A stretch of DNA of 64,000 nucleotides from Deltaproteobacteria bacterium (GCA_028713995.1 JAQTNF010000001.1:39981-103980); one strand, 5' to 3'; shown: positions 1 to 13,848, counted from the first letter of the stretch. Numbers and translations: made by a program. Notes: generated by a model from the sequence alone, not told the origin.

Positions 1-1037
1 ACCTGCCCGCCGGCCTCGATGAAATCCCGGCCGAGGCGCTCGCCGTCGCTCCCGAGCTCGACCCGGCCGCCTTCGGCGACAAGCTCGCCGCCATGCGCCG
101 CATGACCGCAACGAACCTGGCCCGGATCGCGACCGCCATCCGCGCCATCCTGGAGGTGGTCCTCTTCTCGGGCGCCTCGGCCCACGTGACGAGCGAGATG
201 CACATCGCGGCCATCCGCGAGTCGTACCGCGACATCATGGAGAAGAACCGCAAGCTGGAGGAGATGAACGAGCGCATGAAGGAGTTCGACCGGCTGCGCT
301 CGAGCTTCCTCGCCACGGTGAGCCATGAGCTGCGCACGCCGCTCACGTCCATCATCGGCTACAGCGACATGCTGGCCGAGGGCATCGCGGGCGAGCTCCT
401 CGCCGAGCAGAAGCAGTTCGTCGAGACCATCAAGGCCAAGGGCGACGAGCTCCTGAAGCTCATCGGCGCCATCCTCGATTTCTCGCAGATCGACACGGGC
501 CACATCACCTTGCAGTCGACCGAGGTCGATCCGGCCGAGCTCGTGCGCGCGGCCGTGGGGCGCAAGCAGCACCTGGCGGACCGGCGGGGGGTCCAGCTCT
601 CCGTCGACCTGCCCGCGGACCTGCCCGTCGTGAGCCTCGACCCGGACATCATCGGGAAGGCGCTCGAGAACCTGGTCGAGAACGCCGTCAAGTTCTCGCT
701 GCCGGGCGGCGTGGTGCGCGTCTCGGCCCGCATCGCGCCCGCGGACAGCGCGGACGGGGCCGAGGACGGCTTCGGCTTCGTGCTCATGGCCCGGCCCGAC
801 ATGCTCGAGATCAACGTGGAGGACCACGGCATCGGCGTCCCGGACGCCGACCAGGAACGCATCTTCGCGCCGTTCACCCAGGCCGACAACTCCTCGACCC
901 GCGAGCACGGCGGCGCGGGGTTGGGGCTCGCCATCGTCAAGCACTACGTCGAGGCCCACGGCGGGCGCGTCCACGTGCGCAGCCACGTGAACGAGGGCAG
1001 CGCGTTCTCCATACGCCTGCCGGTCGTTCGCGACTGA
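1..1037 (+). CDS. sensor histidine kinase, 5'-truncated by the window edge (HisKA and HATPase_c domains only)
   Basis: HisKA H-box 'SHELRTPLTSIIGYSDML'. G-box 'GGAGLGLAIVKHYVEAHGGRVHV' with N and G1/G2 motifs. The reading frame is open back to nt 3 with no stop, so the sensor domain must lie upstream of the window. Confidence 0.8.
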   Translation, partial: LPAGLDEIPAEALAVAPELDPAAFGDKLAAMRRMTATNLARIATAIRAILEVVLFSGASAHVTSEMHIAAIRESYRDIMEKNRKLEEMNERMKEFDRLRSSFLATVSHELRTPLTSIIGYSDMLAEGIAGELLAEQKQFVETIKAKGDELLKLIGAILDFSQIDTGHITLQSTEVDPAELVRAAVGRKQHLADRRGVQLSVDLPADLPVVSLDPDIIGKALENLVENAVKFSLPGGVVRVSARIAPADSADGAEDGFGFVLMARPDMLEINVEDHGIGVPDADQERIFAPFTQADNSSTREHGGAGLGLAIVKHYVEAHGGRVHVRSHVNEGSAFSIRLPVVRD

Positions 1038-1929
1038 CGGAGAGCTGCGCTATCGTTGTGGCGGCGAGCGCTTCGATACTGATCCCCCCTCCCTGGGAGA
1101 TCAGCGCCACGCTCCTGCCCCCGTGGCCGCGCGTGACCGCGACCTCGCCGCCGGGCCGCTCCTCGACGCTCGCCGACAGGGCGGGATCGACCGACAGGCT
1201 CCCGCCGTCCGGATGGCAGATGATCTCGAAGTCGCCGCCGCTTTCGATGGCGAACGTGATGCTGCTTCCCGACGTGGTGACGCGGATCGTCCCCTCGCCG
1301 CCGCCGAGCGAGGCCACGTCCGCGGCGCCGCCCGCGTCGATGTCCATGCCGCCGTGGGATTCGACCGAGACGTCGCCGCCCGTCCGCACCGTGACGCCGC
1401 CGTACGCGACGGACTCCACGGCCACGTCGCCCGTGTCCGAGACCGCGACCACGTCGCCTTCGGCTCCTTTGACCGAGATGTCGCCCGAGCCGGTTTCGAG
1501 GTCGAGGTCGCCCTCCACGCCGGACACCGCGAGATCGCCGTAGCCGGTGTCGATGGTGAGTCTCGCGCCGCGCGGCACCTTCGAGCCGCGGTCGAGCACC
1601 AGGTCCACGAGCCCGACGCGGGAGGCGGGCGGCTCGAAGGACAGGATCAGCTCGGCCGGGCCCCGCGCGGCGGTGAGGACGGCGTAGTCGAGGTTGGCCC
1701 GGGCCTTGGCCGGGGAGGCGCCCACGGCCGACGAGATCCCGCGCATGGCGACCCGGTGCGCGTCCCAGCCCGAGATGGCCACGTCGCCCGCGAGCCCCGT
1801 GATCGTGAGCTCGCCGCTCTCGCCGAGATCGAAGCTCTCGTCGTAGGCGCCCTCGGTCCGGAACTGGACCGTGCACGCCGCGGCGAGCAATGCGACCGTG
1901 GGGATCGCGCGGGCCCTCAGTGGTACCAT
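937..1929 (-). CDS. DUF4097-type lipoprotein (LiaG-like putative adhesin with beta-strand repeats)
   Basis: Lipoprotein signal 'MVPLRARAIPTVALLAAAC'. Repeated GDVAV/GDISV/GDVSV beta-strand motifs typical of DUF4097. The ATG overlaps the upstream caspase-gene stop by 11 nt. Only the N-terminal 330 aa of the 889-aa ORF-track entry look real; the rest is an Arg/Gly artefact. Confidence 0.7.
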   Translation of the reverse strand: MVPLRARAIPTVALLAAACTVQFRTEGAYDESFDLGESGELTITGLAGDVAISGWDAHRVAMRGISSAVGASPAKARANLDYAVLTAARGPAELILSFEPPASRVGLVDLVLDRGSKVPRGARLTIDTGYGDLAVSGVEGDLDLETGSGDISVKGAEGDVVAVSDTGDVAVESVAYGGVTVRTGGDVSVESHGGMDIDAGGAADVASLGGGEGTIRVTTSGSSITFAIESGGDFEIICHPDGGSLSVDPALSASVEERPGGEVAVTRGHGGRSVALISQGGGISIEALAATTIAQLSVSRERPAGVWRTRCPRSRGCARGRARRGPRRSA

Positions 1930-3950
1930 GTGAGCCCTCCTACGTACTCCACCGAGAATGCGGTGGGAGCCACCTCGGCGCCGTACGTCCGCCGCGTGCC
2001 GATCGCGACGCCGGCCCGGCCGCCGAAGTCGAGCGACCAGGCGCGCGCCGGGAAGTAGTGCAGCCCGGCCGCGACGTATGGATAGAGCGCCCATCCCACG
2101 TCGCCCGCGTCTTCGCCCTGCCCCGCGCGCGCGGTCTGCACCTCGCACCCGAGCCCCGCGCCCGCGGACCACATGAGGTTCTTGAGGGCGAGGCCGCGGC
2201 CGCGCAGCTCGGGCCCCAGCTTGACCGTGGCGAAGTCCGCGTCCCAATTCACGGACAGGTTGCGCAGGCCGATCACCACGTTGCGGTGCGGCGCGAGGCC
2301 GAGGCCGAGGCCGCCGTCCACGCTCATCGCCATGGTGGTGGGCGTGCGCACGAGGGACGGGGCCAGGCTCAAGCCCACGTCGACGAACATGGCGTCGAGA
2401 TCCGGCGCGCCCGGTCCGCCCCGCGTGTTCGAATAGAACGCGTCGATGGCCGCGTAGCCGTAAGTGTAGAACGCGAGCCCGCCGAGCGCGGTCGCGCCGC
2501 CGAGCTTGGCGCCCGCAACCGGATCCGAGTCCGTTGAGCGCACGCTTCGTCCCACCAGCACGGCCCCGACCAGGGACCCCACGGTCAGCCCGAGCAGGAG
2601 CGCGCCGTCCGCGTAACGCTTGCCGATGAGCTGTGGCACGCCCGGCGCCACGAGCGAGATGCCCAAGGCCGCGGGAGGCACGAGCAGGGCGCCCTTGCGC
2701 CGCGCAAGGGAGGGTCCCTCGTCGACCCCGGCGGGGGCCGCCGACGGCTGCGGTCCCGGGTCCGCCTTTGCGGGCGCGATCGGAGAAGCCGCACGATCGT
2801 TCGCGCCGTTCCACCGCGCGCCCGGGCCCAGGGGGATCTCGGTGAGCGGCCGGACGTGCGCGCTCACGACCGGGACCGCGACCGGCTCGGGTGCGCCCTT
2901 GGCGGTCGCCACGACCATGGGGACGTCGATGAAGTCCGACGGGCCGAGAGTGATCGAATCCCCGTCCCTGAGCCTCGCCTCCGCGGCGTGCAGGCCGGTC
3001 GTCGTGCGCAGCCGGACGTTGTAAGAGCCGGGCGCGAGGGCCACGGCGAGCGCGGCGCCCTTCGCCTTCTCGACCTCGGCCTCGATGCGGCCCGAGGTGC
3101 CCGTGATGAGGACCGTGCCCTCGAGATCGGAAGCGAGATCGATGCGCGCCCGCGTGGCCGACGGGGATGTGAGATCCACGTCGCCCTCGCCCTGCAGCGC
3201 GTACAGGAACGTGGGATGCTGCGGGCCGGATGCGGTGCCCTCGGTCTCCTGCACGGTGAAACGGTAGGCGTACTCGTAGGCCTCGGACACGGACACGCGG
3301 CCGTCGCCGCCCGTGTCGGCCGGCCCGCGCAGGCCGGAGATGAGGTGGTGGCTGAAGAACGACGAGCCGAGCGCGTCGGATTCCTGGGCGTTCTCGATCG
3401 CCGCGGCCGAGGTGAGGATGACCATGCCGCGCGCGCGCACGGGCTGCTCCTCGAGGAACGGCGAGACGACGCGCCCTCCCTTCTGGCGCGTGATCTCCCC
3501 GGACTGGCAGGCGTCGATGATGACCACGCGCACCTTGGCAGGCGTCTGTTCGAGGCGCCGCTTCAGCTCCTCGAGGGCGAGCCCGCGGCCACCGAGGCGC
3601 AGCCACCCCGAGTCCGCGTGCCCGGAGTAGTAGAACACGAGCACCGCATCGCCGCCCGCCGCGTTGATGCGCGCCGCCATGTCGTCGAGGGCCGAGCGCA
3701 CCGCGTCCGGGCCCTCACCGAGGAGCAGCGTCATGTTCTCGCGCGCCACCCCGCCGATCTCGACGAGCAGGTCGGCCATGCGCTCCGCGTCGCGCTCCGC
3801 GTACCTGAGCGGCTCCGAGCGCGGCAGCCCCAGGTTGTTGCCCACGACGACCGCGAACCTCCGGCCGGACGCGGTCTCCTCGGCGCGCGCCCCTGCACCG
3901 GCGGTCGCGAGCAATGCGAATAGGAGGGCCGTGGGCGCGAGACGTTTCAC
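1917..3950 (-). CDS. secreted caspase-family (peptidase C14, orthocaspase/metacaspase-like) protein with a hydrophobic, Gly-rich C-terminal region
   Basis: Signal peptide after a GTG start with RBS AGAGGTGAGC. His-Cys catalytic dyad context 'VLVFYYSGHAD' ... 'VRVVIIDACQSGE' as in metacaspase/orthocaspase C14 domains. Two hydrophobic segments near aa 420-470. The C-terminal ~200 aa are Gly/aromatic-rich and end in 'GGLTWYH', which looks like an outer-membrane beta-barrel terminus. Confidence 0.75.
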   Translation of the reverse strand: MKRLAPTALLFALLATAGAGARAEETASGRRFAVVVGNNLGLPRSEPLRYAERDAERMADLLVEIGGVARENMTLLLGEGPDAVRSALDDMAARINAAGGDAVLVFYYSGHADSGWLRLGGRGLALEELKRRLEQTPAKVRVVIIDACQSGEITRQKGGRVVSPFLEEQPVRARGMVILTSAAAIENAQESDALGSSFFSHHLISGLRGPADTGGDGRVSVSEAYEYAYRFTVQETEGTASGPQHPTFLYALQGEGDVDLTSPSATRARIDLASDLEGTVLITGTSGRIEAEVEKAKGAALAVALAPGSYNVRLRTTTGLHAAEARLRDGDSITLGPSDFIDVPMVVATAKGAPEPVAVPVVSAHVRPLTEIPLGPGARWNGANDRAASPIAPAKADPGPQPSAAPAGVDEGPSLARRKGALLVPPAALGISLVAPGVPQLIGKRYADGALLLGLTVGSLVGAVLVGRSVRSTDSDPVAGAKLGGATALGGLAFYTYGYAAIDAFYSNTRGGPGAPDLDAMFVDVGLSLAPSLVRTPTTMAMSVDGGLGLGLAPHRNVVIGLRNLSVNWDADFATVKLGPELRGRGLALKNLMWSAGAGLGCEVQTARAGQGEDAGDVGWALYPYVAAGLHYFPARAWSLDFGGRAGVAIGTRRTYGAEVAPTAFSVEYVGGLTWYH

Positions 3951-3952
3951 GC

Positions 3953-4786
3953 TCACCTCTTGCGGATCCAGAAAGTCGCCTGCTCGCACGGGAGGGGCAG
4001 CGTCCCTGTTCGCAACGCGCCCGGCCCTCTCCCGGCCAGGCTGCGGGCCGCGCGCTCCACGGCCTGCGCGTCTCCGGCCGCGTCGCCCACGCACAGGAAG
4101 AACCTCTCGAACGACGGGGCGTCGTCGAGGACCACGCTCGCGTCGATGAGCCGGCCCCGCCCCTCGCGCAGCGTGACCGCGCCCGAGGCGTCCGTGGGGA
4201 AATAGCGGGTGACCGCGCCGCGGCCGTCGATGCCCACGAGGACCGCGGGCGCGCTTCGCGGGGCGTCGTACCAGAACTGGATGCGATCGCCCGCGCCGAG
4301 CACGTCGCCGCTCTCGCCCATCTCGCCGCCTCGCGCGCCCTGCCTGTAAAAGCCGAGCCTGAATCCGCCTCGGACGGCCGCTCCATCCTGCGCGCGCCCG
4401 AGCGACGAGGCGCTGCCCATGACGCGCGTCTGGGTGCGCCGCGCCTCCTTGTCGAAGGCCGCCACATACTCCCCGCGCCCGGATCCGGCGAGCCCGGGCA
4501 GCACGAACGCGAGCGCGACCGCTGCGGCCACGGCCACGGGCGCCGCGACGAGGACGAGCCGCGCCCACGGTCTTCGACGCGGCGCGATCCACAGGGCCCG
4601 CACCTTCTCGGGCACGGGGCGCAAGGGGAAGGCCGCCTCATCGGCTCGGGCCTCGGCCAGGGCGGCACGGCACGCGTCGCACTCCAGGGCGGCGGCCTCG
4701 ACCGCCTCGCGGGCAGGTCCCTCAAGCTCGCGGAGCAGGTAGCGCTCGATCGCGATCTGGTTGAGGCACCTGTGGTTCGAGGTCAT
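3953..4786 (-). CDS. membrane-spanning anti-sigma factor (ZAS-like H-x3-C ... C-x2-C N-terminus, one TM helix, periplasmic domain)
   Basis: N-terminus 'MTSNHRCLNQ...ECDACRAAL' gives H/C plus CxxC zinc-binding residues. TM segment 'ARLVLVAAPVAVAAAVALAFVLPGLAG'. The ATG overlaps the sigma-factor stop (ATGA). The stop lies 2 nt from the caspase GTG start. Confidence 0.7.
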   Translation of the reverse strand: MTSNHRCLNQIAIERYLLRELEGPAREAVEAAALECDACRAALAEARADEAAFPLRPVPEKVRALWIAPRRRPWARLVLVAAPVAVAAAVALAFVLPGLAGSGRGEYVAAFDKEARRTQTRVMGSASSLGRAQDGAAVRGGFRLGFYRQGARGGEMGESGDVLGAGDRIQFWYDAPRSAPAVLVGIDGRGAVTRYFPTDASGAVTLREGRGRLIDASVVLDDAPSFERFFLCVGDAAGDAQAVERAARSLAGRGPGALRTGTLPLPCEQATFWIRKR

Positions 4787-5373
4787 GACCGCACCTTGAG
4801 CAGCGCGAGGGCGCGCTTGTGCGCCTTCGACTTGAACTTGCCCATGCGCTTGCGCACGAGCGCCACCGAGCACCCCGTCACCTCCGCGATCTCCTCGTAG
4901 GTCATACCCTCGACCACGCCGTACAGCACGGTCTCGCGCGTGGCCCCGTCGAAGCCCAGGAGCACCCTCAGCACGAGGTCCCGCGGCCACGCCTCCACCG
5001 GCTCCGAGACCGCCGCCGGCTCGAACGCCTGCTGCTCGAGGCGGTCGCGGTTCCTCTTGTCGCGGATGCGGTTCAGGCTCACGTTGGTGGCGATGCGGTA
5101 GAGCCACGTGGCCGGGGAAGCCTGGCCGCGGAAACGCTCCATGGAGCGCACGACCCGCATGAACACGTCCTGCGCCGCGTCGTCCGCCTCGGCCTCGATC
5201 CCGAGGATCCGCAGACAGCGCCTGTGCACCATGCCGCCGTATTTCCTGTAGACATCCTCGATATCGAGCTCGGCCACGGTCGTCGCCCTCTCCTTGAGGA
5301 CCGGAGCATCCACCGGGCCCGTCACGGCAGTCAAGCCCCGGCCTTGTCCGGCCATGGCGAAGCAGGTCATCAT
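4783..5373 (-). CDS. ECF (group IV) sigma-70 family RNA polymerase sigma factor
   Basis: Region 2 'DVYRKYGGMVHRRCLRILG...AQDVFMRVVRSMERFRG...SPATWLYRIATNVSLNRIRDKR'. Region 4 HTH 'EGMTYEEIAEVTGCSVALVRKRM'. Start chosen at 'MMTCFAMAG' with a GGAGG 9 nt upstream. Confidence 0.85.
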   Translation of the reverse strand: MMTCFAMAGQGRGLTAVTGPVDAPVLKERATTVAELDIEDVYRKYGGMVHRRCLRILGIEAEADDAAQDVFMRVVRSMERFRGQASPATWLYRIATNVSLNRIRDKRNRDRLEQQAFEPAAVSEPVEAWPRDLVLRVLLGFDGATRETVLYGVVEGMTYEEIAEVTGCSVALVRKRMGKFKSKAHKRALALLKVRS

Positions 5374-5429
5374 TGCGGCACGCCTCCGACATCTTGGACC
5401 CGCGGGCTCGGAAAAAGCTGTGGGAAAAA

Positions 5430-5458
5430 TAGGTCCTATGGGACCAATGGGTCCTATG
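5430..5458. promoter_or_regulatory. repeat motif in the divergent promoter region: direct repeat T(A/G)GGTCCTATG x2, 18 nt apart, with an embedded inverted repeat GGTCC-TATG-GGACC
   Basis: Read directly: 'taggtcctatgggaccaatgggtcctatg' between the divergently transcribed ECF sigma gene and the 5486 gene. The ORF-track 'GPMGPMGPM' translation across it is a spurious artefact of the repeat. Confidence 0.3.
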
Positions 5459-5485
5459 TTAGTCTTTCTCATTCCGGGAGGCTCC

Positions 5486-6106
5486 ATGGCCGAGGAAACC
5501 AGCGGCATCATGACCGGCGTCACGCGCGTCACCAAGGAGAAGGAGACGGGCGAGCACCCCATGATGAGCTACACTGCCGTGACGACCCACAGGTCCATGG
5601 CCCAGGCCTTCGTGGGGGAGCTCCTGCGAGTGGCGCGGCGGATCATGCCCGATCACGAGCTGTCCATCGAGGACCTCGTGTCCGTCTGCCATGTGGCCCT
5701 CGACACGCGCGAGCACGGCGTGGTCATGCTCGAGGGCAAGCACCTGCGCGGACGGGTCGCCGAGCAGATCTCGCGCGCCGACCGCTACCAGGAGACGTTC
5801 AGCGTCCAGGTCATCGGCTGGGACAAGGAGAGCGGCAAGGTCGACTACGACTCCGTGGTCGACACCCTGTGCGAGCGCCTGCGCAAGACCGACCTCATGT
5901 TCCTCTTCAAGTCCCGCCTCGTACTGCTTCTGCCCCACACGGGCGCCGAGGCCAGCGCCAGGCTCGCGGACCGCATACGCCGCCTGATCGAGGTCGCGTT
6001 CGCCAACCCCAACGATATCGTCATCGACCGGCTGACCTACCCCTCGCCGGAAATCGCCCGGGCGAGCGAGGTGCTCGATTGGGTCGAGGACAAGATACGC
6101 TCCTGA
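5486..6106 (+). CDS. hypothetical protein with a degenerate GGDEF-like domain (no GG[DE]EF motif)
   Basis: RBS GGGAGG before the ATG. The C-terminal 'KTDLMFLFKSRLVLLLPHTGAEASARLADRIRRLIE' resembles the GGDEF-domain tail 'RYGGEEFvvLLPetd..A..vAErIR', but the GGEEF site is replaced by LFKSR. The stop overlaps the next ATG (TGATG). Confidence 0.45.
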   Translation: MAEETSGIMTGVTRVTKEKETGEHPMMSYTAVTTHRSMAQAFVGELLRVARRIMPDHELSIEDLVSVCHVALDTREHGVVMLEGKHLRGRVAEQISRADRYQETFSVQVIGWDKESGKVDYDSVVDTLCERLRKTDLMFLFKSRLVLLLPHTGAEASARLADRIRRLIEVAFANPNDIVIDRLTYPSPEIARASEVLDWVEDKIRS

Positions 6107-7554
6107 TGCCCCCCCAAATCGCCGTCGCTCTCCTCCTTGCCGTCGCGTTCGTGGCGACCCCCGCGCGCGCCCCGGCCGGCGAGCTCATGCGCTTCGGCCC
6201 CGCGGCCGTGCCCGAGGCCCACTCCGACTACGGGGGCACGCCCGACCCGCCGGTCTCGCCCGAGATGGGCCTCTCGCCCGTGGAGATCCGCGCGATCCTC
6301 GCGCGTTTCGCCTCGACCGGTCCCGGGGAGCGCCGCCGCGCGCTCGAGGCCCTGCGGCGCGACGCGGACGGATCGGAGCGGGCCTTTCGCGAGGTGCTGT
6401 GGGGAAGGCACGGGGCCGCCAACGCCGAGATGCGCGGGGCGGTCAAGGACGCGGAGCGGCGCGCCCCGGGCTCGGGCAGGGACAAGGGCGACGCCCTCGC
6501 CGGGCTCTTGGCGTCCTCGGCCTCGGACCGCGGCACGACGACCGCCCTCGGCATCGCCGCCGTGCTGCGCGTCCTCGCCGACCTCGACACCCTGGCCGGC
6601 TACAAGGTGCTCATCGAATTCTCGCCCCGGCACGCGGGCGTCTTCCGCCGCGAGGTCGGCCGCCTCCTCGTGTCGAAAGGACTGCCGGCCATGCCGGCCC
6701 TCGTCTACGGTCGCGGCAGCAAGAACCCGGAGATCCACCTCTTCTGCGTGGAGTGGATCCGCGACATGGGCGAGCCGCTCCTCGGCGAGCAGATCAAGCT
6801 CAAGAACCCGCGGCGCCTGGCGCAGCTCCTCGAGGCCTATGCCTCGGTCAACGACCTCGACGCCATCGACGTGACCTTGTCCCTCGCCAACCACGAGTCC
6901 GTGTTCGTGCGCAACGCCGCCCGCAAGTGCATCGAGGCCTACGGAGTGAACGCCAAGTGGTCCGTGCGGCGCGAGTACGAGAACACCTTCGGACGCACCC
7001 TTCCCGACAGCGCGGACACGGTCGCCATGTTCGCCGAGCTGTGCCGCCGCTGGGACGAGAAGCGCCTGTCCGGCCCGGCCGAGATATTCGCGCGCGGTCT
7101 CGCGCAGCGGGCGGCCGGCAGGCTCGACGAGATGGCCAAGGACTTCAGGCTCGTGCTGCGCGACGCGCCGCTGTTCGCACGTCGCGGCGAGATGGCCGAG
7201 GGCTTCCTGTCCCATGCCGCGGCCCTCGACGCCGCGGGGCGCACCCGCGAGGCGCGCGAGGCGATCCTCGTCGCGAGGCGCGTGGCGCCCGCGGGCTCCC
7301 CGGAGTGGCGCAAGGCCGAGGCCCGCCTGAAGTGGCTCCTCGCGGAGCAGATGCGCGCGGCCGGCGCGGCCTCGCCCGAGCTGTACCGCCAGGTCCTGGC
7401 CCTCGATCCGGGCCTCGAGGACGCCGCGTCGCGGCTCGCCCGCCTCACCGGCGCGAAGCCGAGGCCCGCGGACGTCGCGATCAAGGGCGCCTTTGTCGCG
7501 GTCTTCGTGTTCCTCGCCGCGCTCCTCGTCGTGCGGCGCCTGGGCGCGCCTTAG
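6106..7554 (+). CDS. hypothetical secreted alpha-helical protein with a C-terminal transmembrane anchor
   Basis: Signal peptide 'MPPQIAVALLLAVAFVATPARA'. C-terminal TM 'IKGAFVAVFVFLAALLVVRRL'. Normal codon usage. The antisense ORF 6037..7617 is rejected. Confidence 0.55.
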   Translation: MPPQIAVALLLAVAFVATPARAPAGELMRFGPAAVPEAHSDYGGTPDPPVSPEMGLSPVEIRAILARFASTGPGERRRALEALRRDADGSERAFREVLWGRHGAANAEMRGAVKDAERRAPGSGRDKGDALAGLLASSASDRGTTTALGIAAVLRVLADLDTLAGYKVLIEFSPRHAGVFRREVGRLLVSKGLPAMPALVYGRGSKNPEIHLFCVEWIRDMGEPLLGEQIKLKNPRRLAQLLEAYASVNDLDAIDVTLSLANHESVFVRNAARKCIEAYGVNAKWSVRREYENTFGRTLPDSADTVAMFAELCRRWDEKRLSGPAEIFARGLAQRAAGRLDEMAKDFRLVLRDAPLFARRGEMAEGFLSHAAALDAAGRTREAREAILVARRVAPAGSPEWRKAEARLKWLLAEQMRAAGAASPELYRQVLALDPGLEDAASRLARLTGAKPRPADVAIKGAFVAVFVFLAALLVVRRLGAP

Positions 7555-7626
7555 GGACTGGCAGGCTCCTTGCTTCCCGACTCCCCATGGGGCAGGCTGT
7601 ACCCGTTTTCGCCCCAAGGAGACCTC

Positions 7627-8418
7627 ATGATGAACAAGATGCTCCTCGTATCTTTCGCAACGGCGGCCTGCGCCTCGCTCGCGGCGAGCGCCCGGGCCGC
7701 GGACGGCGGCATCGACGCGGGCGACACGGACGCCGGCCCGGTGTCCGACGATCCCTGCTATCTCGACAACGGGAACGAGACGGACGTGGGCTCGCTGTTC
7801 GGGTGCAACGGCCCGCCGCCCGGACCCGCGCAGTCCCCCGTCTCGATCGGCGCCGAGTGCGCCTTCGACTCGCTCGACGACGTGACCTACGGCAACTGCC
7901 CGGCGGGGCTCTCGGTCTGCTACCCGTACGCGGAGTGGTACGGCGGCGTGGACGGTGAGGACAACCAGTGCGGCATCTGCCTCGCGCGCTGCACCGACTT
8001 CTCCGACTGCCCGGACGGCGAGTCGCGGACCTGCGACGGCGACACGGACTGTGCGTCCGGCAACTGCAACGACGTCACGATGACGTGCGATTTTGAGTAC
8101 GACTTCTGCTCATCGGACTGCCCCGGGGGCATGCGCTGCTGGGCATACGGCGGCGGATACGGCCTGTGCATGATCGACTGCGCGGACGACTCGGATTGCG
8201 CCACCTCCGTATGCGATCCGATCTGGAAGACGTGCGTCCCGCGCACCGCGGTGTGCGGAGTCGACGACACCGACACCGGGACCGGCGGAGGCGACACGGA
8301 TACGGGCGTCGGCACCGACCAGGACGGCGGGACCCCGGCGAAGAACAAGGGAGGCTGCTCGTGCGACGCGGCCGGCTCCAAGGCCGCACCCGGGTTCTTC
8401 GCCCTCCTCCTGCGCTGA
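7627..8418 (+). CDS. Cys-rich secreted protein with a MYXO-CTERM-like C-terminus
   Basis: RBS AAGGAG. Signal peptide 'MMNKMLLVSFATAACASLAASARA'. Many paired Cys (TCDGDTDCASGNCND...). C-terminal 'GGCSCDAAGSKAAPGFFALLLR' matches the Cys-Gly-Cys / hydrophobic / Arg MYXO-CTERM pattern. Confidence 0.6.
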   Translation: MMNKMLLVSFATAACASLAASARAADGGIDAGDTDAGPVSDDPCYLDNGNETDVGSLFGCNGPPPGPAQSPVSIGAECAFDSLDDVTYGNCPAGLSVCYPYAEWYGGVDGEDNQCGICLARCTDFSDCPDGESRTCDGDTDCASGNCNDVTMTCDFEYDFCSSDCPGGMRCWAYGGGYGLCMIDCADDSDCATSVCDPIWKTCVPRTAVCGVDDTDTGTGGGDTDTGVGTDQDGGTPAKNKGGCSCDAAGSKAAPGFFALLLR

Positions 8419-9030
8419 TCAGATCCCCAAGATATCCGTGGCCAGATGCGCGACCCGATCGTGCCGGATGCGCTCGGCCAGGAGCACGGCCCGCAGCCTC
8501 CCGTAGGCCGCGGAGAGGTCGTCGTTCACGAGCAGGTAGTCGAAGAGCCCGTGCTGCGCGATCTCGGCCTGCGCGGCCTCGAAGCGCCGCACGAGCGACT
8601 CGGGCGACTCGGTGCCCCGCGAGCGCAGCCGGCGCTTGAGCTCGTCGAGCGACGGCGGGAGCACGAACACGGTCACGGCGCCCGGATGCCGGGCCTTGAT
8701 CTGGCGGGCTCCCTGGAAGTCCACGTCGAAGACCAGGTCCTTGCCCTCGCGGGCCGCGGCGTCCACCTCGGCGCTCGCCGTGCCGTAACGGTTTCCGTGG
8801 ACAAAGGCCCACTCGAGGAACATGTCGGCCGCGACCATCCGCTCGAACTCGGCCTCGTCCACGAAGCGGTAGTCCCGGCCGTCCACCTCTGTGGCCCGCG
8901 GCTTGCGCGTGGTGTGCGACACGGAGAAGCGCAGATCGCCGAACTCGGCCAGAAGGCGCCGGCACAAGGTCGTCTTGCCCGCGCCGGACGGCGAGGAGAC
9001 GATGAACAGGAGAGGGGTCGGTTTCGTCAT
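8419..9030 (-). CDS. gmk: guanylate kinase
   Basis: P-loop 'SSPSGAGKTTL'. Guanylate-kinase motifs 'SVSHTTRKPR' and 'EVDGRDYRFV'. 203 aa. Confidence 0.9.
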   Translation of the reverse strand: MTKPTPLLFIVSSPSGAGKTTLCRRLLAEFGDLRFSVSHTTRKPRATEVDGRDYRFVDEAEFERMVAADMFLEWAFVHGNRYGTASAEVDAAAREGKDLVFDVDFQGARQIKARHPGAVTVFVLPPSLDELKRRLRSRGTESPESLVRRFEAAQAEIAQHGLFDYLLVNDDLSAAYGRLRAVLLAERIRHDRVAHLATDILGI

Positions 9031-9033
9031 CGG

Positions 9034-9906
9034 TCACTCCACGTTCTGCGTGAGCTCGCGCACCTTCTCGATTTCCGACTTCAAGTCGACGATGACGTGG
9101 CACGCCTCGGCCTTGCCTGTCTTGGCCCCGGCCGTGCCCGCCTCGCGCGTCATCTCCTGCAACAGGAACTCCATGCGCCTGCCCACGGGCCCCGAAGCGT
9201 CACACGCCGCCGCCAGCTGGTCGCAGTGCGACACGAGACGCGCGAGCTCCTCCGAGATGTCCGAGCGGCTCGCGAGCAGCGCCGCCTCGGCCTCGAGCCG
9301 CCTGCCGTCGAGCCCCTGCTCGACCGTGGCGACGAGCGCGCGCAGGCGCTCCTTGAGCCTCTCGAACGCCGCCTGCGCCGAGTCCGCCGCGCTCGCCGAG
9401 AGGGTCTCCACGCACCTGCGCATGGCGTCAACGCCCGCCCGGATCTGCCGGCGCATGGCCTCGCCCTCGGATGCGCGCATCGCCAGGAGGTCTTGCGCCG
9501 CGATCTCGAACGCGGCCGCGACCGCCGCCTCGATCTCCTCGCGGTTCGAGCCGCCCAAGGATCGAAACAGATCCGGCGCGCCTGCAAGGACCGGGACCAG
9601 ATCCGCGAGCACGAGCCCCGAGTCGCCGGCCACCGCCACGAGCGTCTCGAGGTGGGAGCGCAGCGCCTTCGCGTCGATGGAAGCCGCGTTGCCGAGCGGC
9701 CCCTCGTACGACAGGGTCGCGGTGCAGTACCCGCGCGACAGCCGCTCTCGCACGAGCCTGTCGACCAGCGCCTCGCAGCCCGCCATCCCGCCGGGCGCAT
9801 GGCTGCGCACCTCGAGGAAGCGATGGTTCACCGTGCGCAACTCGACGACGACCCGACCCTCGCCGAGCGGCGCGTCTCCCCTGCCGAAGCCGGTCATGCT
9901 CTGCAT
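9034..9906 (-). CDS. yicC: YicC family stress-induced protein (YicC N-terminal domain plus DUF1732)
   Basis: N-terminus 'MQSMTGFGRGDAPLGEGRVVVELRTVNHRFLEV' is the conserved YicC start. 290 aa. Sits 3 nt upstream of gmk, the usual gmk-yicC neighbourhood. Confidence 0.85.
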   Translation of the reverse strand: MQSMTGFGRGDAPLGEGRVVVELRTVNHRFLEVRSHAPGGMAGCEALVDRLVRERLSRGYCTATLSYEGPLGNAASIDAKALRSHLETLVAVAGDSGLVLADLVPVLAGAPDLFRSLGGSNREEIEAAVAAAFEIAAQDLLAMRASEGEAMRRQIRAGVDAMRRCVETLSASAADSAQAAFERLKERLRALVATVEQGLDGRRLEAEAALLASRSDISEELARLVSHCDQLAAACDASGPVGRRMEFLLQEMTREAGTAGAKTGKAEACHVIVDLKSEIEKVRELTQNVE

Positions 9907-9957
9907 GCCTAAGGGACTTGCCTCGACACGAAAGCCCCTGTCAAGGCCGGATACGGT

Positions 9958-10263
9958 TCATTTGAACAGCTTCTTGAGCTTCTCCCTGGCCGACACCACG
10001 TCCGGGGCCTCGGCGGCGCCGTTCTTATAGGTGAAGTTCGTGCAATAGTTCGTGCGCTCCCGTTCCGGGACGTACTCGGTGATGTGCTCCCGGCACTGGT
10101 TGTGCGATCCCGGATCCCAGTACTCGCAGTTCCTGCAGCAGTGCATGTCCTGCCCGCAGTGCGGACACGAGTCCGTGCGCTGCATCTTCACACGGTCGAA
10201 ATCGATTTCATTCGCGCACTTGAAACAGAAGTAGTGCTTCTCTTCCACTTTCGGTATGTACAT
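9958..10263 (-). CDS. small Cys-rich zinc-ribbon protein
   Basis: RBS TAAGGAG 8 nt before the ATG. 'CFKCANE...CPHCGQDMHCCRNCEYWDP...C' gives at least 8 Cys in CxxC pairs. Lower GC than the surroundings. Confidence 0.6.
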   Translation of the reverse strand: MYIPKVEEKHYFCFKCANEIDFDRVKMQRTDSCPHCGQDMHCCRNCEYWDPGSHNQCREHITEYVPERERTNYCTNFTYKNGAAEAPDVVSAREKLKKLFK

Positions 10264-10323
10264 TTGGGTTCTCCTTAGGCTCGCTGCGCCTCCCTCGGCG
10301 CAGGCTGCGGCCTTGAGGTTCAC

Positions 10324-11547
10324 ATGCCGAGGATACCAGGATCGGCGATGCAGGCAAGACGGACCGGCCGGGCATGGATGGTCGTCGCGCTGGCGCTCGC
10401 CTCCTCGTGCATGCCGGAAAGCGACAGGGGCGGCCCGCCACCCCTCGAAGTGGATCCTTCGTCCGCGCTGCAGGGCGCCTCGCTCGTCGTCACCTTGAGC
10501 GCCGAGGGAGTCGCGCTCGAGGAGTGCGCCGGCCTCGCACCATCATCGCTCGCGTTCCGCAACCCGGAGGGGATCAGCCAAGTGACGGTCTACACGCTCG
10601 ACCCGATCGAGGGGAGCGCCCTGCGCGCCCAGATCGCGGTCGCCGAGGACGCCGAGCCGGGCGAGCACGAGGTGAGCCTCTCGTGCGACCCGGCCACCAC
10701 GCTCAAGGGCGTCCTACGCGTCAGGGAGAGGACCGGGGAACCGGCGCTCTCGTTCGATCCCGCGGGGGGGCCGGCCGGCGCCGTGGCCCTCGGGATCGAC
10801 GTGCACGCACCCGGAGCGGGCTTCGTCGACGGGAAGAGCCAGATCATCTTCGGCGACGGGACTTCGGTCGCCATCGTCGAACAGATCGTGGTCGGCCGCG
10901 AGGATATCCATGTGGTCGTGGACGTCTCGGCCCTGACCCCGGTCGGGGATCTGCCCGTGGCCGTCATCACGGGCGGCGAGGTCGCGCGCGGCACGTTCGC
11001 GATCACGGATCGAATCTGGCCGAGCATTGAGGTGGATCCGGCCGAGGCCGAACGCGGCAGCCTGGACACGCCAGCCCAGGCGTCCCTCACCATCGACGGC
11101 ACGAACATGCGCTTCGTCGAACCGGCCCCGGATGCCGGCGCGGACGATCCGGATGCAACGCGCGTCACGTTCCCCCACAACCCGGGCATCTCGGTGACCG
11201 CCGTGGACGTGGCGAGCCCCACGCGTCTCCTCGTCAACATCCTCTTGAACCACATCGCCGATCTCGGGCCGACCACGTTGCGCGTGTCCACGGGCGATCA
11301 GTTCGCCGAGACCGACTTCACCGTGCTGCCGCAGGCCGGCACGGCCACCTTGACCCTGTCGCCCCGCTCGCTGCCCCGGGGAGCGCAGAACACGCTGGTC
11401 CTGGCCGAGGCCACCAACTTCGATTTCGTAGAGCCCGCCGCGGTCGCGTTCGAGAAGCCGGGCTGCCAGGTCGTGTCGAGCCAGATCCTCACCGACAAGG
11501 CCATCGCCCTGTACGTTTCGATCGACCCGGGTTTCGAGGGCGCCTAG
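10324..11547 (+). CDS. lipoprotein; N-terminal segment of a large secreted repeat protein, ending at an in-frame TAG
   Basis: Lipobox 'VVALALASSC'. Repetitive beta-rich Ig-like segments. Same reading frame as the next ORF, separated only by TAG-AAC. Confidence 0.55.
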   Translation: MPRIPGSAMQARRTGRAWMVVALALASSCMPESDRGGPPPLEVDPSSALQGASLVVTLSAEGVALEECAGLAPSSLAFRNPEGISQVTVYTLDPIEGSALRAQIAVAEDAEPGEHEVSLSCDPATTLKGVLRVRERTGEPALSFDPAGGPAGAVALGIDVHAPGAGFVDGKSQIIFGDGTSVAIVEQIVVGREDIHVVVDVSALTPVGDLPVAVITGGEVARGTFAITDRIWPSIEVDPAEAERGSLDTPAQASLTIDGTNMRFVEPAPDAGADDPDATRVTFPHNPGISVTAVDVASPTRLLVNILLNHIADLGPTTLRVSTGDQFAETDFTVLPQAGTATLTLSPRSLPRGAQNTLVLAEATNFDFVEPAAVAFEKPGCQVVSSQILTDKAIALYVSIDPGFEGA

Positions 11548-11550
11548 AAC

Positions 11551-13848
11551 GTGATCGACGTCACATCGGGCGGCAAGTCGGTCTCGTCCTACCTGGGCGT
11601 CACGGCGGACGGCGGCTTGCGCCTCGCGAGCCCGGTGCCGGCAACGCTGTCGCAGGGCGCGGTCGCCGCCGAGGTCGCGCTCGGCGCGTTGGGGGGGACG
11701 CTCGATCCGGGCTCCACCGCCCGGGTCCTCGCCCGCTCCGGCATCCGCGTGGCCTCGGCACTCGTGGACGACGGCGGCGGCGCCATCCGGCTCTGGCTCG
11801 ACGTGGCCGACGACGCCCCGGTCGGTCCGGCGTTCGTCGAGGTCTTAAGCGCGGGAACTGCGCTCACGGCCTTCCTCTCGATCGAGGCGAGCGGGCCTTC
11901 CGTGTCCGTGCACCCGTCGGTCCTCCTGCCCGGCCGGCGCACGGCCGAGTTCCGGATTTCGGCCGCCGGGATGACGCTGTCCAAGGACGTGGGCATCGCC
12001 TTCGACGATCCGGCCATCAGCGTGGTCAAGCTCGCGCCCGACGGCCAGGGCGGTGTGGACGTGACGGTCGCGGTGGGCCCCACGGCCCGATCCGACATGA
12101 CCGTGGCGTACGTCCGGGACGGCGCGAGCAGCGCCGCGGCCACGTTCCGGGTTCTGGCGGCCTCGCGGTCCACGGCGACCGCGATCCCCTTCGAGATCAC
12201 GCGCGGGGGCAGAGCCGCCCACGCGATCTCCGTGTCCGGCCAGGGCACGTCATTCTCCGCGGACGAGACGGTGGCGCGACTCCCGGGCGGGATCGGCGTG
12301 GACGTGACGCGCGTCGAGGTGCTCGACGCCACGACCCTCCATCTGGACCTCTCCGTGGACGAGGACGGGCCCGGAGGCTGGACCGGCATCCTCTTGAGGA
12401 CCGGCGAGGAGTCGGTGGTGGTTCCGCTGCACATCGCCGCGGGTGATGAGTCCCTGACCATGACGGTCACGCCGTCGAGCCTCCCACCCGGGACCAGGGA
12501 CGCGGTCTTGGACATCACCACTCCCGCCGCGGTGTCGCTCGAGACGTCGATGTCGAAAACGAGCACCGGCACGGCCGGCGCCTATGCGACGCTCACGCAG
12601 GTGAAAGGCGCGAACCAGGCACGCGCGGCGTTCGACATCTCGTTCGGCGCTCAGATCGAGGGCGGCAGGATCCCGATTTTCGTCGCCACCGCCGAGGGCG
12701 CGGCCGTGGGGTTCGTCGAGTCCGAGCCGATCGCGGCCACGCAGCTCACGGAGTTTGCGCCGTGGGAGGGCACTCTCGTCCCCAAAGAAGCGCTCCTGTT
12801 CAGCGTGACCCCCGCCGGCGTGCCATCGTTGATCGAGACGTGCGTGGGCGACCCGTCCCGCACGGACGTGAACCTTGAGCTCCTCGCGTCCGACGGGATC
12901 TCGACCCAGGACTGGACCGGCGCGGGACACGTGTGGCTCCTCGATCCCGGCGATACCCTGTTCGTCGCGCGGCCGTCCGAGGATCCCGGCGACCTGCCTT
13001 CCGCGCTGTCGGTCGCCACACGGACGAGCGGGACCACCGCCATGCCCGAGCCGGATGACCTGCCGGAACAGGCCATGACCCTGCCGGGGAATCCCTGCGA
13101 GCAACCCTTCCTCGGGCTCGCCGCCATCAACGGTGCGCTCGACGTGGACCGGCTCTTAGTGGGCGCCACGACGTGCCCGCTCGTGGTCTCGGCCGTCGCG
13201 CGTTCCCTCGCCGACCGCCCCTGGTCCACCCCGGATCTGTGGATCGAGATCCGCGATTCCACCGACAAGCCCCTGGCGTCGGCCACGGACCAGCCTTCGA
13301 CCCGGGACGCGGATCCGTCCATTCCTCTCGAAGTCTCCTCGGCGAGCCGGCAGATCGTGGTGGGCGCGCAGATGGGCTCGACCGGGCTCTACCTCCTCAA
13401 CGTCCGGCGGGCCGAGATCGTGCGCACGCTCTGCCGCGACGTCGCGCGGCAGTTCATCGAGCTCGAGGTGGGCGCGCAGACGACCGCCTCCTCCCTGTCG
13501 CTCTCGGTCGTCGATCCGTCGGACGGCACCCTCCTCGCCCACCTCGACGTGCCTGCCACGGTCCCGCCCGCGGACGGGATCCTGGTTCTCGGACGCGCCG
13601 CCATGCCCGGGACCGACGTGGCCGCGGACGCGCTCCTCGACGGGCTTCCCGAGTCGGGCCCGTTCGCGGTCGTGCTCTTCGTCGACGGGACCGCCGTGGA
13701 CGCCGTGGAGGCGGGCGGGTCCGGCACCTACGGCGAAGGAGAGCCCTTGCCCGAGACCACGGTGTGCGCCGCGCGCCTCAGCGGGATCGACAGCAACGAC
13801 AACAGCTTCGACTTCCAGGTGGGTTGGGCGGGCGCCCCGGGATTCTGA
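11551..13848 (+). CDS. large secreted repeat protein, downstream segment (GTG start, no signal peptide); probably contiguous with 10324..11547
   Basis: 765-aa ORF in the same frame as the upstream ORF. No signal peptide of its own. Similar repetitive segments (e.g. 'DVTRVEVLDATTLHLDLSVDEDGPGGW'). Confidence 0.5.
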   Translation: MIDVTSGGKSVSSYLGVTADGGLRLASPVPATLSQGAVAAEVALGALGGTLDPGSTARVLARSGIRVASALVDDGGGAIRLWLDVADDAPVGPAFVEVLSAGTALTAFLSIEASGPSVSVHPSVLLPGRRTAEFRISAAGMTLSKDVGIAFDDPAISVVKLAPDGQGGVDVTVAVGPTARSDMTVAYVRDGASSAAATFRVLAASRSTATAIPFEITRGGRAAHAISVSGQGTSFSADETVARLPGGIGVDVTRVEVLDATTLHLDLSVDEDGPGGWTGILLRTGEESVVVPLHIAAGDESLTMTVTPSSLPPGTRDAVLDITTPAAVSLETSMSKTSTGTAGAYATLTQVKGANQARAAFDISFGAQIEGGRIPIFVATAEGAAVGFVESEPIAATQLTEFAPWEGTLVPKEALLFSVTPAGVPSLIETCVGDPSRTDVNLELLASDGISTQDWTGAGHVWLLDPGDTLFVARPSEDPGDLPSALSVATRTSGTTAMPEPDDLPEQAMTLPGNPCEQPFLGLAAINGALDVDRLLVGATTCPLVVSAVARSLADRPWSTPDLWIEIRDSTDKPLASATDQPSTRDADPSIPLEVSSASRQIVVGAQMGSTGLYLLNVRRAEIVRTLCRDVARQFIELEVGAQTTASSLSLSVVDPSDGTLLAHLDVPATVPPADGILVLGRAAMPGTDVAADALLDGLPESGPFAVVLFVDGTAVDAVEAGGSGTYGEGEPLPETTVCAARLSGIDSNDNSFDFQVGWAGAPGF

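Follow-up and report, generated by a model that had tools for sequence, protein, structure and literature searches.

A widespread unit of ECF sigma factor, membrane anti-sigma factor and exported caspase-like protease, with a shared sequence motif that may mark a proteolytic switch

The subject of this study is a group of four co-oriented genes on the minus strand, within positions 937-5373, of a 64,000-nucleotide stretch of DNA from a Deltaproteobacteria bacterium (GCA_028713995.1 JAQTNF010000001.1:39981-103980), which we refer to as the window. These genes, which were read directly from the sequence and from a listing of open reading frames (ORFs), encode a sigma factor of the extracytoplasmic function (ECF) class, a membrane anti-sigma factor, an exported caspase-like protease and a predicted lipoprotein related to DUF4097 (Table 1). 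The first three of these genes, those for the sigma factor, the anti-sigma factor and the protease, form a unit that is widespread; the locus is an ordinary example of this module, in which the key motif is present in a degenerate version. The initial annotation of this DNA had placed the protease under the control of the sigma factor, which is probably half of the logic: a T-R-x-K-G motif shared by the anti-sigma factor and the protease, together with the DUF4384-type anti-sigma factor, suggests that the caspase also acts on the anti-sigma factor. We therefore propose tentatively, with a confidence that stops somewhat short of even, that the caspase is the site-1 protease that cuts the anti-sigma linker and frees the sigma factor, and that it would thus be part of the switch and not a product only.

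A scan of one genome per species returned 447 loci encoding relatives, 80 of which were kept for study with their flanks, and the six-frame ORFs of these 80 loci were searched with the four window proteins. The order sigma factor, anti-sigma factor, caspase was found in 70 of the 72 related loci that have enough upstream DNA, and the arrangement in the window is therefore not a one-off. An anti-sigma homologue lies between sigma factor and caspase in all 59 of these 70 loci in which such a homologue was detected, and an ORF of anti-sigma size occupies the gap in the remaining 11. Ten loci have no sigma factor match; eight of these are cut by the end of a contig, while two (L020 and L074) have upstream DNA and no pair. 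An overlap of the sigma stop codon and the anti-sigma start codon in the form ATGA was present in 54 of 71 loci. According to the names of the database records, the loci derive from Myxococcota, Fibrobacter, Chitinivibrionales, Vicinamibacterales and other Acidobacteriota, Eisenbacteria and Aminicenantia. For the caspase itself, 225 homologues were obtained at E ≤ 1e-5 among 8000 scored candidates, and there are about 25 or more full-length orthologues in which the C-terminal half is conserved as well. Several of the related loci (L008, L010, L020, L021, L024, L030, L037, L040, L044, L055, L059, L072) come from metagenome-assembled genomes labelled Klebsiella, Enterobacterales, Enterobacteriaceae, Bifidobacteriaceae or Bifidobacteriales; such labels are implausible for a Myxococcota-like module, and the bins are probably mislabelled.

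The gene downstream of the caspase is far less constant. A DUF4097-like gene follows the caspase only in L002-L006, which hold the closest orthologues and where it has the same overlapping start, and elsewhere the position is taken, depending on the sub-clade, by a gene for a beta-lactamase-fold protein, for a DUF2167 protein or for a member of an unannotated family. Since the downstream gene varies by sub-clade, the conserved unit consists of sigma factor, anti-sigma factor and caspase, and the lipoprotein is a lineage add-on. This is the opposite of the earlier view that the caspase had been inserted into an otherwise familiar set of ECF pair and DUF4097 protein. A universal fourth gene downstream of the caspase was considered as well, and rejected because several sub-clade-specific genes hold that place. 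Two variant arrangements were seen. L084 (Myxococcaceae, 8001-11748) has the order caspase, 307-aa protein, sigma factor, anti-sigma factor, and L086 (Myxococcus sp. MISCRS1, 6519-8415), which is syntenic with a Stigmatella locus and adjoins DUF6748 and dnaN genes, has kept the sigma factor and an ActD-like gene, the caspase being replaced by a 203-aa protein without a Pfam match. No second, paralogous copy of the module was found in the 64-kb window.

In the window, the junctions support a single, tightly coupled and co-oriented unit of four genes. The stop codon of the sigma factor gene (TGA, 4785-4783) and the start codon of the anti-sigma gene (ATG, 4786-4784) share ATGA, and the anti-sigma stop codon (TGA, 3955-3953) is followed after 2 bases by the GTG start codon of the caspase gene (3950-3948), all of which had been described before and was confirmed. 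The caspase coding sequence terminates in LTWYH and a TGA at 1919-1917, and the ATG of the next gene lies at 1929-1927. These two coding sequences accordingly overlap by 13 nt if the stop codon is counted and by 10 nt if it is not, and the 11 nt given at first was slightly off. The genes are translationally coupled.

The sigma factor contains the Pfam domains Sigma70_r2 (68 bits) and Sigma70_r4_2 (29.5 bits) and no others, and it matches the NCBIfam model sigma70-ECF with 73.6 bits against a cut-off of 42.9. Both its size and its domain content are those of the ECF sigma factors (group 4), and it is coupled to a cognate anti-sigma factor through the shared ATGA. The AlphaFold2 (AF2) model of this anti-sigma factor, with a mean predicted local distance difference test score (pLDDT) of 82.7, comprises a cytoplasmic helical domain (aa 10-67) and one transmembrane helix (74-95), after which a linker in the periplasm, disordered in the model (100-134), leads to a confidently predicted, DUF4384-like beta-sandwich with helices (143-276). 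The family matches of the window protein remain below threshold, at 16.5 bits against a cut-off of 22.2 for the Pfam domain zf-HC2 and at 16.7 bits against a gathering score of 27 for DUF4384 (PF14326); a CDAC sequence is present, and the His of the H-x3-C-x2-C signature is absent from the expected position. Among 72 members of the anti-sigma family, 33 match zf-HC2 and 23 match DUF4384 (E < 0.01), the best DUF4384 match having an E-value of 1.2e-6, and relatives carry database names such as ActD-like, DUF4384 domain-containing and anti-sigma factor RsiW. A Foldseek comparison of the anti-sigma model with the PDB gave only generic matches to immunoglobulin (Ig)-like or carbohydrate-binding module (CBM)-like folds, at E-values of about 3e-3. 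Homology between the beta domain of the anti-sigma factor and the beta-sandwich of the caspase was rejected, as the profile-profile comparison gave it a probability of 1.3%.

The Myxococcaceae homologues of the anti-sigma factor (P0137, P0149, P0150, P0164-P0282, L081, L086) are widely named ActD or ActD-like. This name hints at a possible relation to ActD of the Myxococcus xanthus act operon, which sets the timing of C-signal production. MXAN_3215, considered in this connection, encodes an acetyltransferase. The Stigmatella and Myxococcus loci that were fetched are units of sigma factor, ActD-like protein and caspase that do not lie beside ActA/ActB-type genes, and literature searches on the link between ActD and the act operon found nothing, the relevant papers themselves being outside the search.

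The third gene encodes a Peptidase_C14 protein (49.1 bits against a Pfam cut-off of 21.4, residues 30-212) with an intact catalytic dyad, formed by His111 in YSGHA (108-112) and Cys148 in DACQSG (146-151), and with an export signal, as had been claimed from the outset. Both catalytic residues are retained in the caspases of all 80 loci, and 66 homologues show no variation at either of them. A signal peptide (MKRLAPTALLFALLATAGAGARA/EE, residues 1-24) was read by eye and is conserved in the orthologues. The AF2 model (mean pLDDT 82.7) begins with a signal-peptide helix and a caspase domain (30-245), in which the loop at 157-169 is disordered. A beta-sandwich (247-343) comes next and is joined by a disordered linker of about 55 residues (355-411) to three hydrophobic helices, whose packing is predicted with confidence (421-506), and to a beta-barrel of 8 strands (523-676). 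In Foldseek searches, the caspase domain resembled MALT1, caspase-6 and metacaspase-9 at E-values of about 1e-7, and the C-terminus resembled the 8-stranded outer-membrane barrel of NspA (1p4t; E = 1.9e-6, TM-score 0.72). The Gly- and aromatic-rich C-terminus that had been pointed out earlier, which ends in GGLTWYH, is thus, as modelled, a beta-barrel of the outer-membrane type (NspA/OmpX/OmpA-type). Six of the caspase homologues match the Pfam family OMP_b-brl; for a few, there are matches to DUF5683 and DUF6677, both of them families of small hairpins. The helical hairpin at 421-506 looks like an inner-membrane anchor in the model, but the segment from hairpin to barrel would, by a rough estimate of the extended length of this segment, be too short to span the periplasm. 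The caspase domain and the sensor domain of the anti-sigma factor both face the periplasm, and a disordered tether holds each of them.

The sequence also provides an indication of what this protease may cut. It aligns with Arabidopsis metacaspase-4 across the His and Cys motifs (E = 0.011); Asp146 precedes Cys148 by two residues, and the counterpart of Asp54 in the alignment is the pocket Asp in the VNDVRRM sequence of metacaspase-4. Given what is generally known of metacaspases, these two residues point to Arg/Lys specificity, and we infer that the caspase has a metacaspase-type preference for these residues through an acidic S1 pocket. A candidate site of this kind, T-R-x-K-G, is found in both the protease and its partner. 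In 60 of 71 loci, the anti-sigma factor has exactly one R.KG, located between the transmembrane helix and the beta domain (mean of 2.9 and maximum of 8 for shuffled sequences), and KG is present in 68 of 71. Exactly one TRxKG was likewise found in 117 of 119 ActD-like proteins from a separate database set. In the caspase, TR.KG was detected in 69 of the 81 caspases of related loci, with a mean of 0.5 in shuffled sequences, and lies 6-9 residues after the catalytic Cys (6-10 in the window) in the context C-x-S-G-x-x-T-R-x-K-G-G; another separate database set contained [TS]RxKG after the Cys in 106 of 120 caspase homologues. This position corresponds to the L2 inter-subunit loop, which is cut when animal caspases are activated. 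Both motifs are located in or at the edge of disordered AF2 segments of low confidence, the mean pLDDT around the caspase motif being 51 for residues 151-160 and 40 for residues 161-170, and in most members the anti-sigma motif precedes the first strand of the DUF4384 domain by only 3-5 residues.

The region upstream of the sigma factor gene suggests how the unit may be transcribed. Among the relatives, a strongly conserved element, GGTGACACTTT-N12-GTGT(C/T), is located just upstream of the sigma factor gene and is identical in Fibrobacter loci and in the Myxococcota loci L002 and L003; identity between relatives of two phyla is the behavior expected of a cognate, autoregulated ECF promoter. 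The window has at the same position a candidate promoter made up of CCCACAGCTTT, a 12-nt spacer and GGGTCCA, followed by a Shine-Dalgarno sequence (GGAGG, 5387-5383) and the ATG at 5373. The ECF-type promoter for which the initial annotation proposed a search upstream of 5373 is clear in the relatives and only weakly recognizable in the window, where its assignment is weak. A regulon could not be called from these elements. Matching the promoter consensus of the relatives to the window with at most three mismatches gave 2 matches against 1.95 expected, and a two-block promoter matrix found 96 window sites above 6 bits while giving the sigma factor promoter 1.0 bit. When two-block motifs were enumerated without supervision in the full set of upstream regions, GC-rich noise overwhelmed the result. 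Directly upstream of the candidate -35 element, between the sigma factor gene and a divergent gene, we observed a near-perfect inverted repeat (TATGGGACCAATGGGTCCTATG, 5432-5458) with 9-bp arms and a 4-nt loop. None was seen in the inspected upstream regions of the closest orthologues, and the repeat could be an operator for another regulator.

According to the mechanism that we propose, the caspase would process itself at TRxK↓GG and, on a signal from the cell envelope, would cleave the linker of the anti-sigma factor at TRxK↓G, whereby the DUF4384 domain would be lost. A site-2 protease of the RseP type would then complete the intramembrane proteolysis and free the sigma factor, which would transcribe its own operon in a positive feedback loop, together with lineage-specific downstream genes such as that for the toastrack lipoprotein. 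In the window, where the linker reads TRVMG, cleavage may occur at the Arg, may be weak, or may be replaced by simple binding. A broader form of this proposal, to which we give a rather low probability, is that the membrane-tethered periplasmic metacaspase would be the dedicated site-1 protease for an entire ECF anti-sigma family, acting on one T-R-x-K↓G site that is found in the linker of the anti-sigma factor and in the activation loop of the protease. As the protease is apparently anchored by a barrel of the outer-membrane type and the substrate resides in the inner membrane, the pair could then report on the geometry or integrity of the envelope.

Several observations weigh against cleavage by the caspase. 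A Met replaces the proposed P1 Lys in the anti-sigma factors of the window, of its nearest relative (P0122) and of L001-L003, the variants across this group being TRVMG (window), TRIMG, TREMG and INLMG. The promoter element of the window scores only 1.0 bit against the family matrix, and the missing Lys and this low score together make the case for a site-1 protease weaker for the window. In addition, the access of the caspase to an anti-sigma factor in the inner membrane is assumed, since its hydrophobic helices precede a barrel of the outer-membrane type. We infer cleavage from the motif, which, being so close to the first strand in most members, might alternatively cap the DUF4384 domain structurally, or might be the site of a different protease, and a comparison by eye, not computed, revealed no covariation of the variable motif position between the partner proteins. 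The partner caspases of the clade with Met variants still carry TRxKGG.

The overall logic of our proposal is the same as that of the RseA/DegS/RseP system of Escherichia coli, in which a periplasmic site-1 cut a few tens of residues outside the membrane is followed by an intramembrane cut and the release of sigma-E. DegS, however, is a PDZ serine protease that is activated by the C-termini of outer-membrane proteins and is encoded elsewhere, whereas the candidate site-1 enzyme of the window is an operon-encoded Cys protease. In its probable working, the module seems closest to DdvA/DdvS and to the craspases. For the anti-sigma factor DdvA of M. xanthus, a periplasmic caspase-like CHAT domain has been proposed to cut the protein's own flexible linker before RseP acts (PMC11506125). 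The likeness consists of an ECF sigma factor held by a single-pass anti-sigma factor, a periplasmic protease of the caspase fold, and a flexible linker between transmembrane helix and periplasmic domain as the proposed site-1 target. The TPR-CHAT protease-like domain of DdvA is fused to the anti-sigma factor and acts in trans within a dimer, whereas the protease of the window, a Peptidase_C14 protein, is encoded separately and has an anchor of its own, the periplasmic domain of the anti-sigma factor is a 135-residue beta-sandwich, and no defence island is attached to the module. In the type III-E craspase, the TPR-CHAT protease Csx29 cleaves Csx30, which binds Csx31 and an RpoE-type sigma factor, and some Csx30 C-terminal domains are DUF4384. 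Here too, the target of a caspase-like protease is a flexible linker in an anti-sigma-like protein, and the cut alters sigma-dependent transcription, but craspase is cytoplasmic, RNA-guided and associated with clustered regularly interspaced short palindromic repeats (CRISPR), its protease family (CHAT) and cleavage motifs differ, and no cas genes accompany the module in the window. The module in the window also differs from both DdvA/DdvS and the craspases in having the shared motif as a candidate cleavage site. Fusions of DUF4384 to orthocaspase domains are documented in cyanobacteria and alphaproteobacteria (PMC6426788, PMC7475262).

The initial annotation could not place the locus in a described system. 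This is correct only in part, because a survey published in 2012 (Asplund-Samuelsson, Bergman and Larsson, PLoS One, PMC3501461) already reported that four of the five metacaspases of M. xanthus DK1622 are encoded in predicted operons with sigma-70-family factors, and that such operons also exist in Anaeromyxobacter, Haliangium, Sorangium, Ralstonia and Fibrobacter, no mechanism being proposed. The gene association is the same, and the window locus belongs to this set. Neither the anti-sigma partner with its DUF4384 domain nor the TRxKG motif is described in the survey, which also leaves out how the caspase is anchored in a membrane and gives no mechanism, and the subfamily of the window adds the outer-membrane-type barrel and the toastrack-like lipoprotein. 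The main text of the ECF classification of Casas-Pastor 2021 makes no mention of caspase, C14, DUF4384 or DUF4097. The gene association is thus known, and the literature searched contains no description of the anatomy, of the motif or of the logic proposed here.

Other explanations for the association deserve to be weighed against an anti-sigma protease. Envelope stress might be sensed in some other way, the caspase and the toastrack lipoprotein then being products of the regulon that serve quality control, surface remodelling or autolysis. A caspase encoded downstream in the same operon must be co-expressed with the sigma factor, ECF operons often carry their own targets, and the membrane anchor and outer-membrane-type barrel of the caspase suggest a task at the outer membrane; the lack of the Lys in the anti-sigma motif of the window and the roles in cell death proposed by the 2012 survey (PMC3501461) fit this explanation as well. 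It nevertheless leaves three things unexplained, namely that from phylum to phylum the caspase, and not just any target gene, is the one partner that never varies although the genes downstream of it do, that the TRxKG motif is shared, and that the link between DUF4384 and caspases recurs, and we consider it rather unlikely to be the whole story. The recurrent link and the shared motif would be accounted for if the DUF4384 domain and the TRxKG linker docked into the active site of the caspase as a pseudo-substrate and held the protease inactive, a signal then separating the two, so that the protease would be activated as an effector and the anti-sigma factor destabilized. The anti-sigma motif is indeed identical to the presumed processing site of the caspase, the variants with Met at P1, such as that of the window, would suit a non-cleavable binder, and other lineages have proteins in which DUF4384 and a caspase domain are fused. 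This docking is nonetheless improbable in our judgement, as profile comparison revealed no relation of DUF4384 to any known family of protease inhibitors, and the structural matches were only of the generic Ig-like or CBM-like kind.

A role in defence, in which the ECF system would sense phage attack at the envelope and thereby release the caspase as a suicide effector, in the way proposed for the defence island under DdvS control, has some precedent: several defence systems include caspase-like proteases, CBASS (cyclic-oligonucleotide-based anti-phage signalling system) and CRISPR loci are controlled by DdvA/DdvS (PMC11506125), and PADLOC returned a weak 'caspase' match of 19 bits for the protease. 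PADLOC found no defence-system match, however, for the sigma factor, the anti-sigma factor or the last gene; the NCBIfam model for the EACC1-associated caspase (NF047832) reached 71.5 bits against a cut-off of 140; there are no defence genes nearby, the nameable flanking genes being the housekeeping genes gmk and yicC and a histidine kinase gene; and the several paralogous copies reported for Myxococcus genomes (four in M. xanthus, PMC3501461) suit signalling paralogues better than a mobile defence island. We regard this explanation as very improbable. That unrelated genes came to lie side by side by chance is, finally, excluded for all practical purposes by the occurrence of the same order in 70 of 72 loci of several phyla with conserved start/stop overlaps.

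Table 1. Positions of the module genes and their associated elements in the window.
Feature	Position	Strand	Basis or remark
Candidate ECF-type promoter	5395..5424	-	Same position as the conserved element of relatives
ECF (group 4) sigma factor, 196 aa	4783..5373	-	Pfam, NCBIfam
Single-pass anti-sigma factor, 277 aa	3953..4786	-	AF2 model; weak zf-HC2 and DUF4384 matches
Anti-sigma linker motif T-R-V-M-G, aa 120-124	4415..4429	-	Position of the family T-R-x-K-G; candidate cleavage site
Exported Peptidase_C14 (caspase-family) protein, 677 aa	1917..3950	-	Pfam, AF2, Foldseek
Caspase motif T-R-Q-K-G, aa 154-158	3477..3491	-	Candidate autoprocessing site
Toastrack/DUF4097-like lipoprotein, 330 aa	937..1929	-	Pfam DUF4097 just below cut-off; orthologues

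The last gene of the operon had been assigned to DUF4097 from the beginning; the gene is real, and its Pfam score for this family (PF13349) is just below the cut-off (22.2 bits against 22.9), the orthologue in L002 scoring 18.6 bits and that in L005 having no match. Its lipobox, LAAAC, was read by eye and is conserved in the orthologues. The last ~45 residues of the ORF (937-1072) are unconserved and run ~100 nt into a convergent histidine kinase gene (93..1037, plus strand); this tail is probably read-through, because stop codons are scarce in DNA of 72% G+C. At the other end of the operon, a divergent gene (5477-6103, plus strand) encodes a protein of 209 aa that resembles diguanylate cyclases only faintly (SiaD model, E = 1.3e-4); no GGDEF motif is recognizable in it by eye, and it looks like a degenerate GGDEF-like domain. 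This gene has been kept divergently upstream of the sigma factor gene in L001, L005, L006 and L007. Further along the plus strand (7570-8418) lies a gene for a Cys-rich, Asp/Gly-rich secreted protein that ends in GCSCDAAGSKAAPGFFALLLR; by eye this end resembles a C-terminal sorting signal of Myxococcota, and NCBIfam gave no match for it at E ≤ 0.001.

Bacterial homologues of caspases are numerous, and to our knowledge almost none of them has a known substrate or role; likewise, we know of no activating signal for most groups of ECF sigma factors. The module described here joins the two in hundreds of genomes, including those of the developmental model Myxococcus and of the cellulolytic rumen bacterium Fibrobacter, and it offers a concrete, testable substrate site in the form of TRxK↓G in the partner anti-sigma factor. 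If the proposal is true, this would be the first defined class of substrates for this large clade of caspases, and the control of anti-sigma factors by caspase-like proteases would extend from fused or CRISPR-linked cases, such as DdvA and the craspases, to a common, free-standing module. Alongside these two systems, caspase-fold proteases would then appear as recurrent and ancient triggers of sigma factor release in bacteria.

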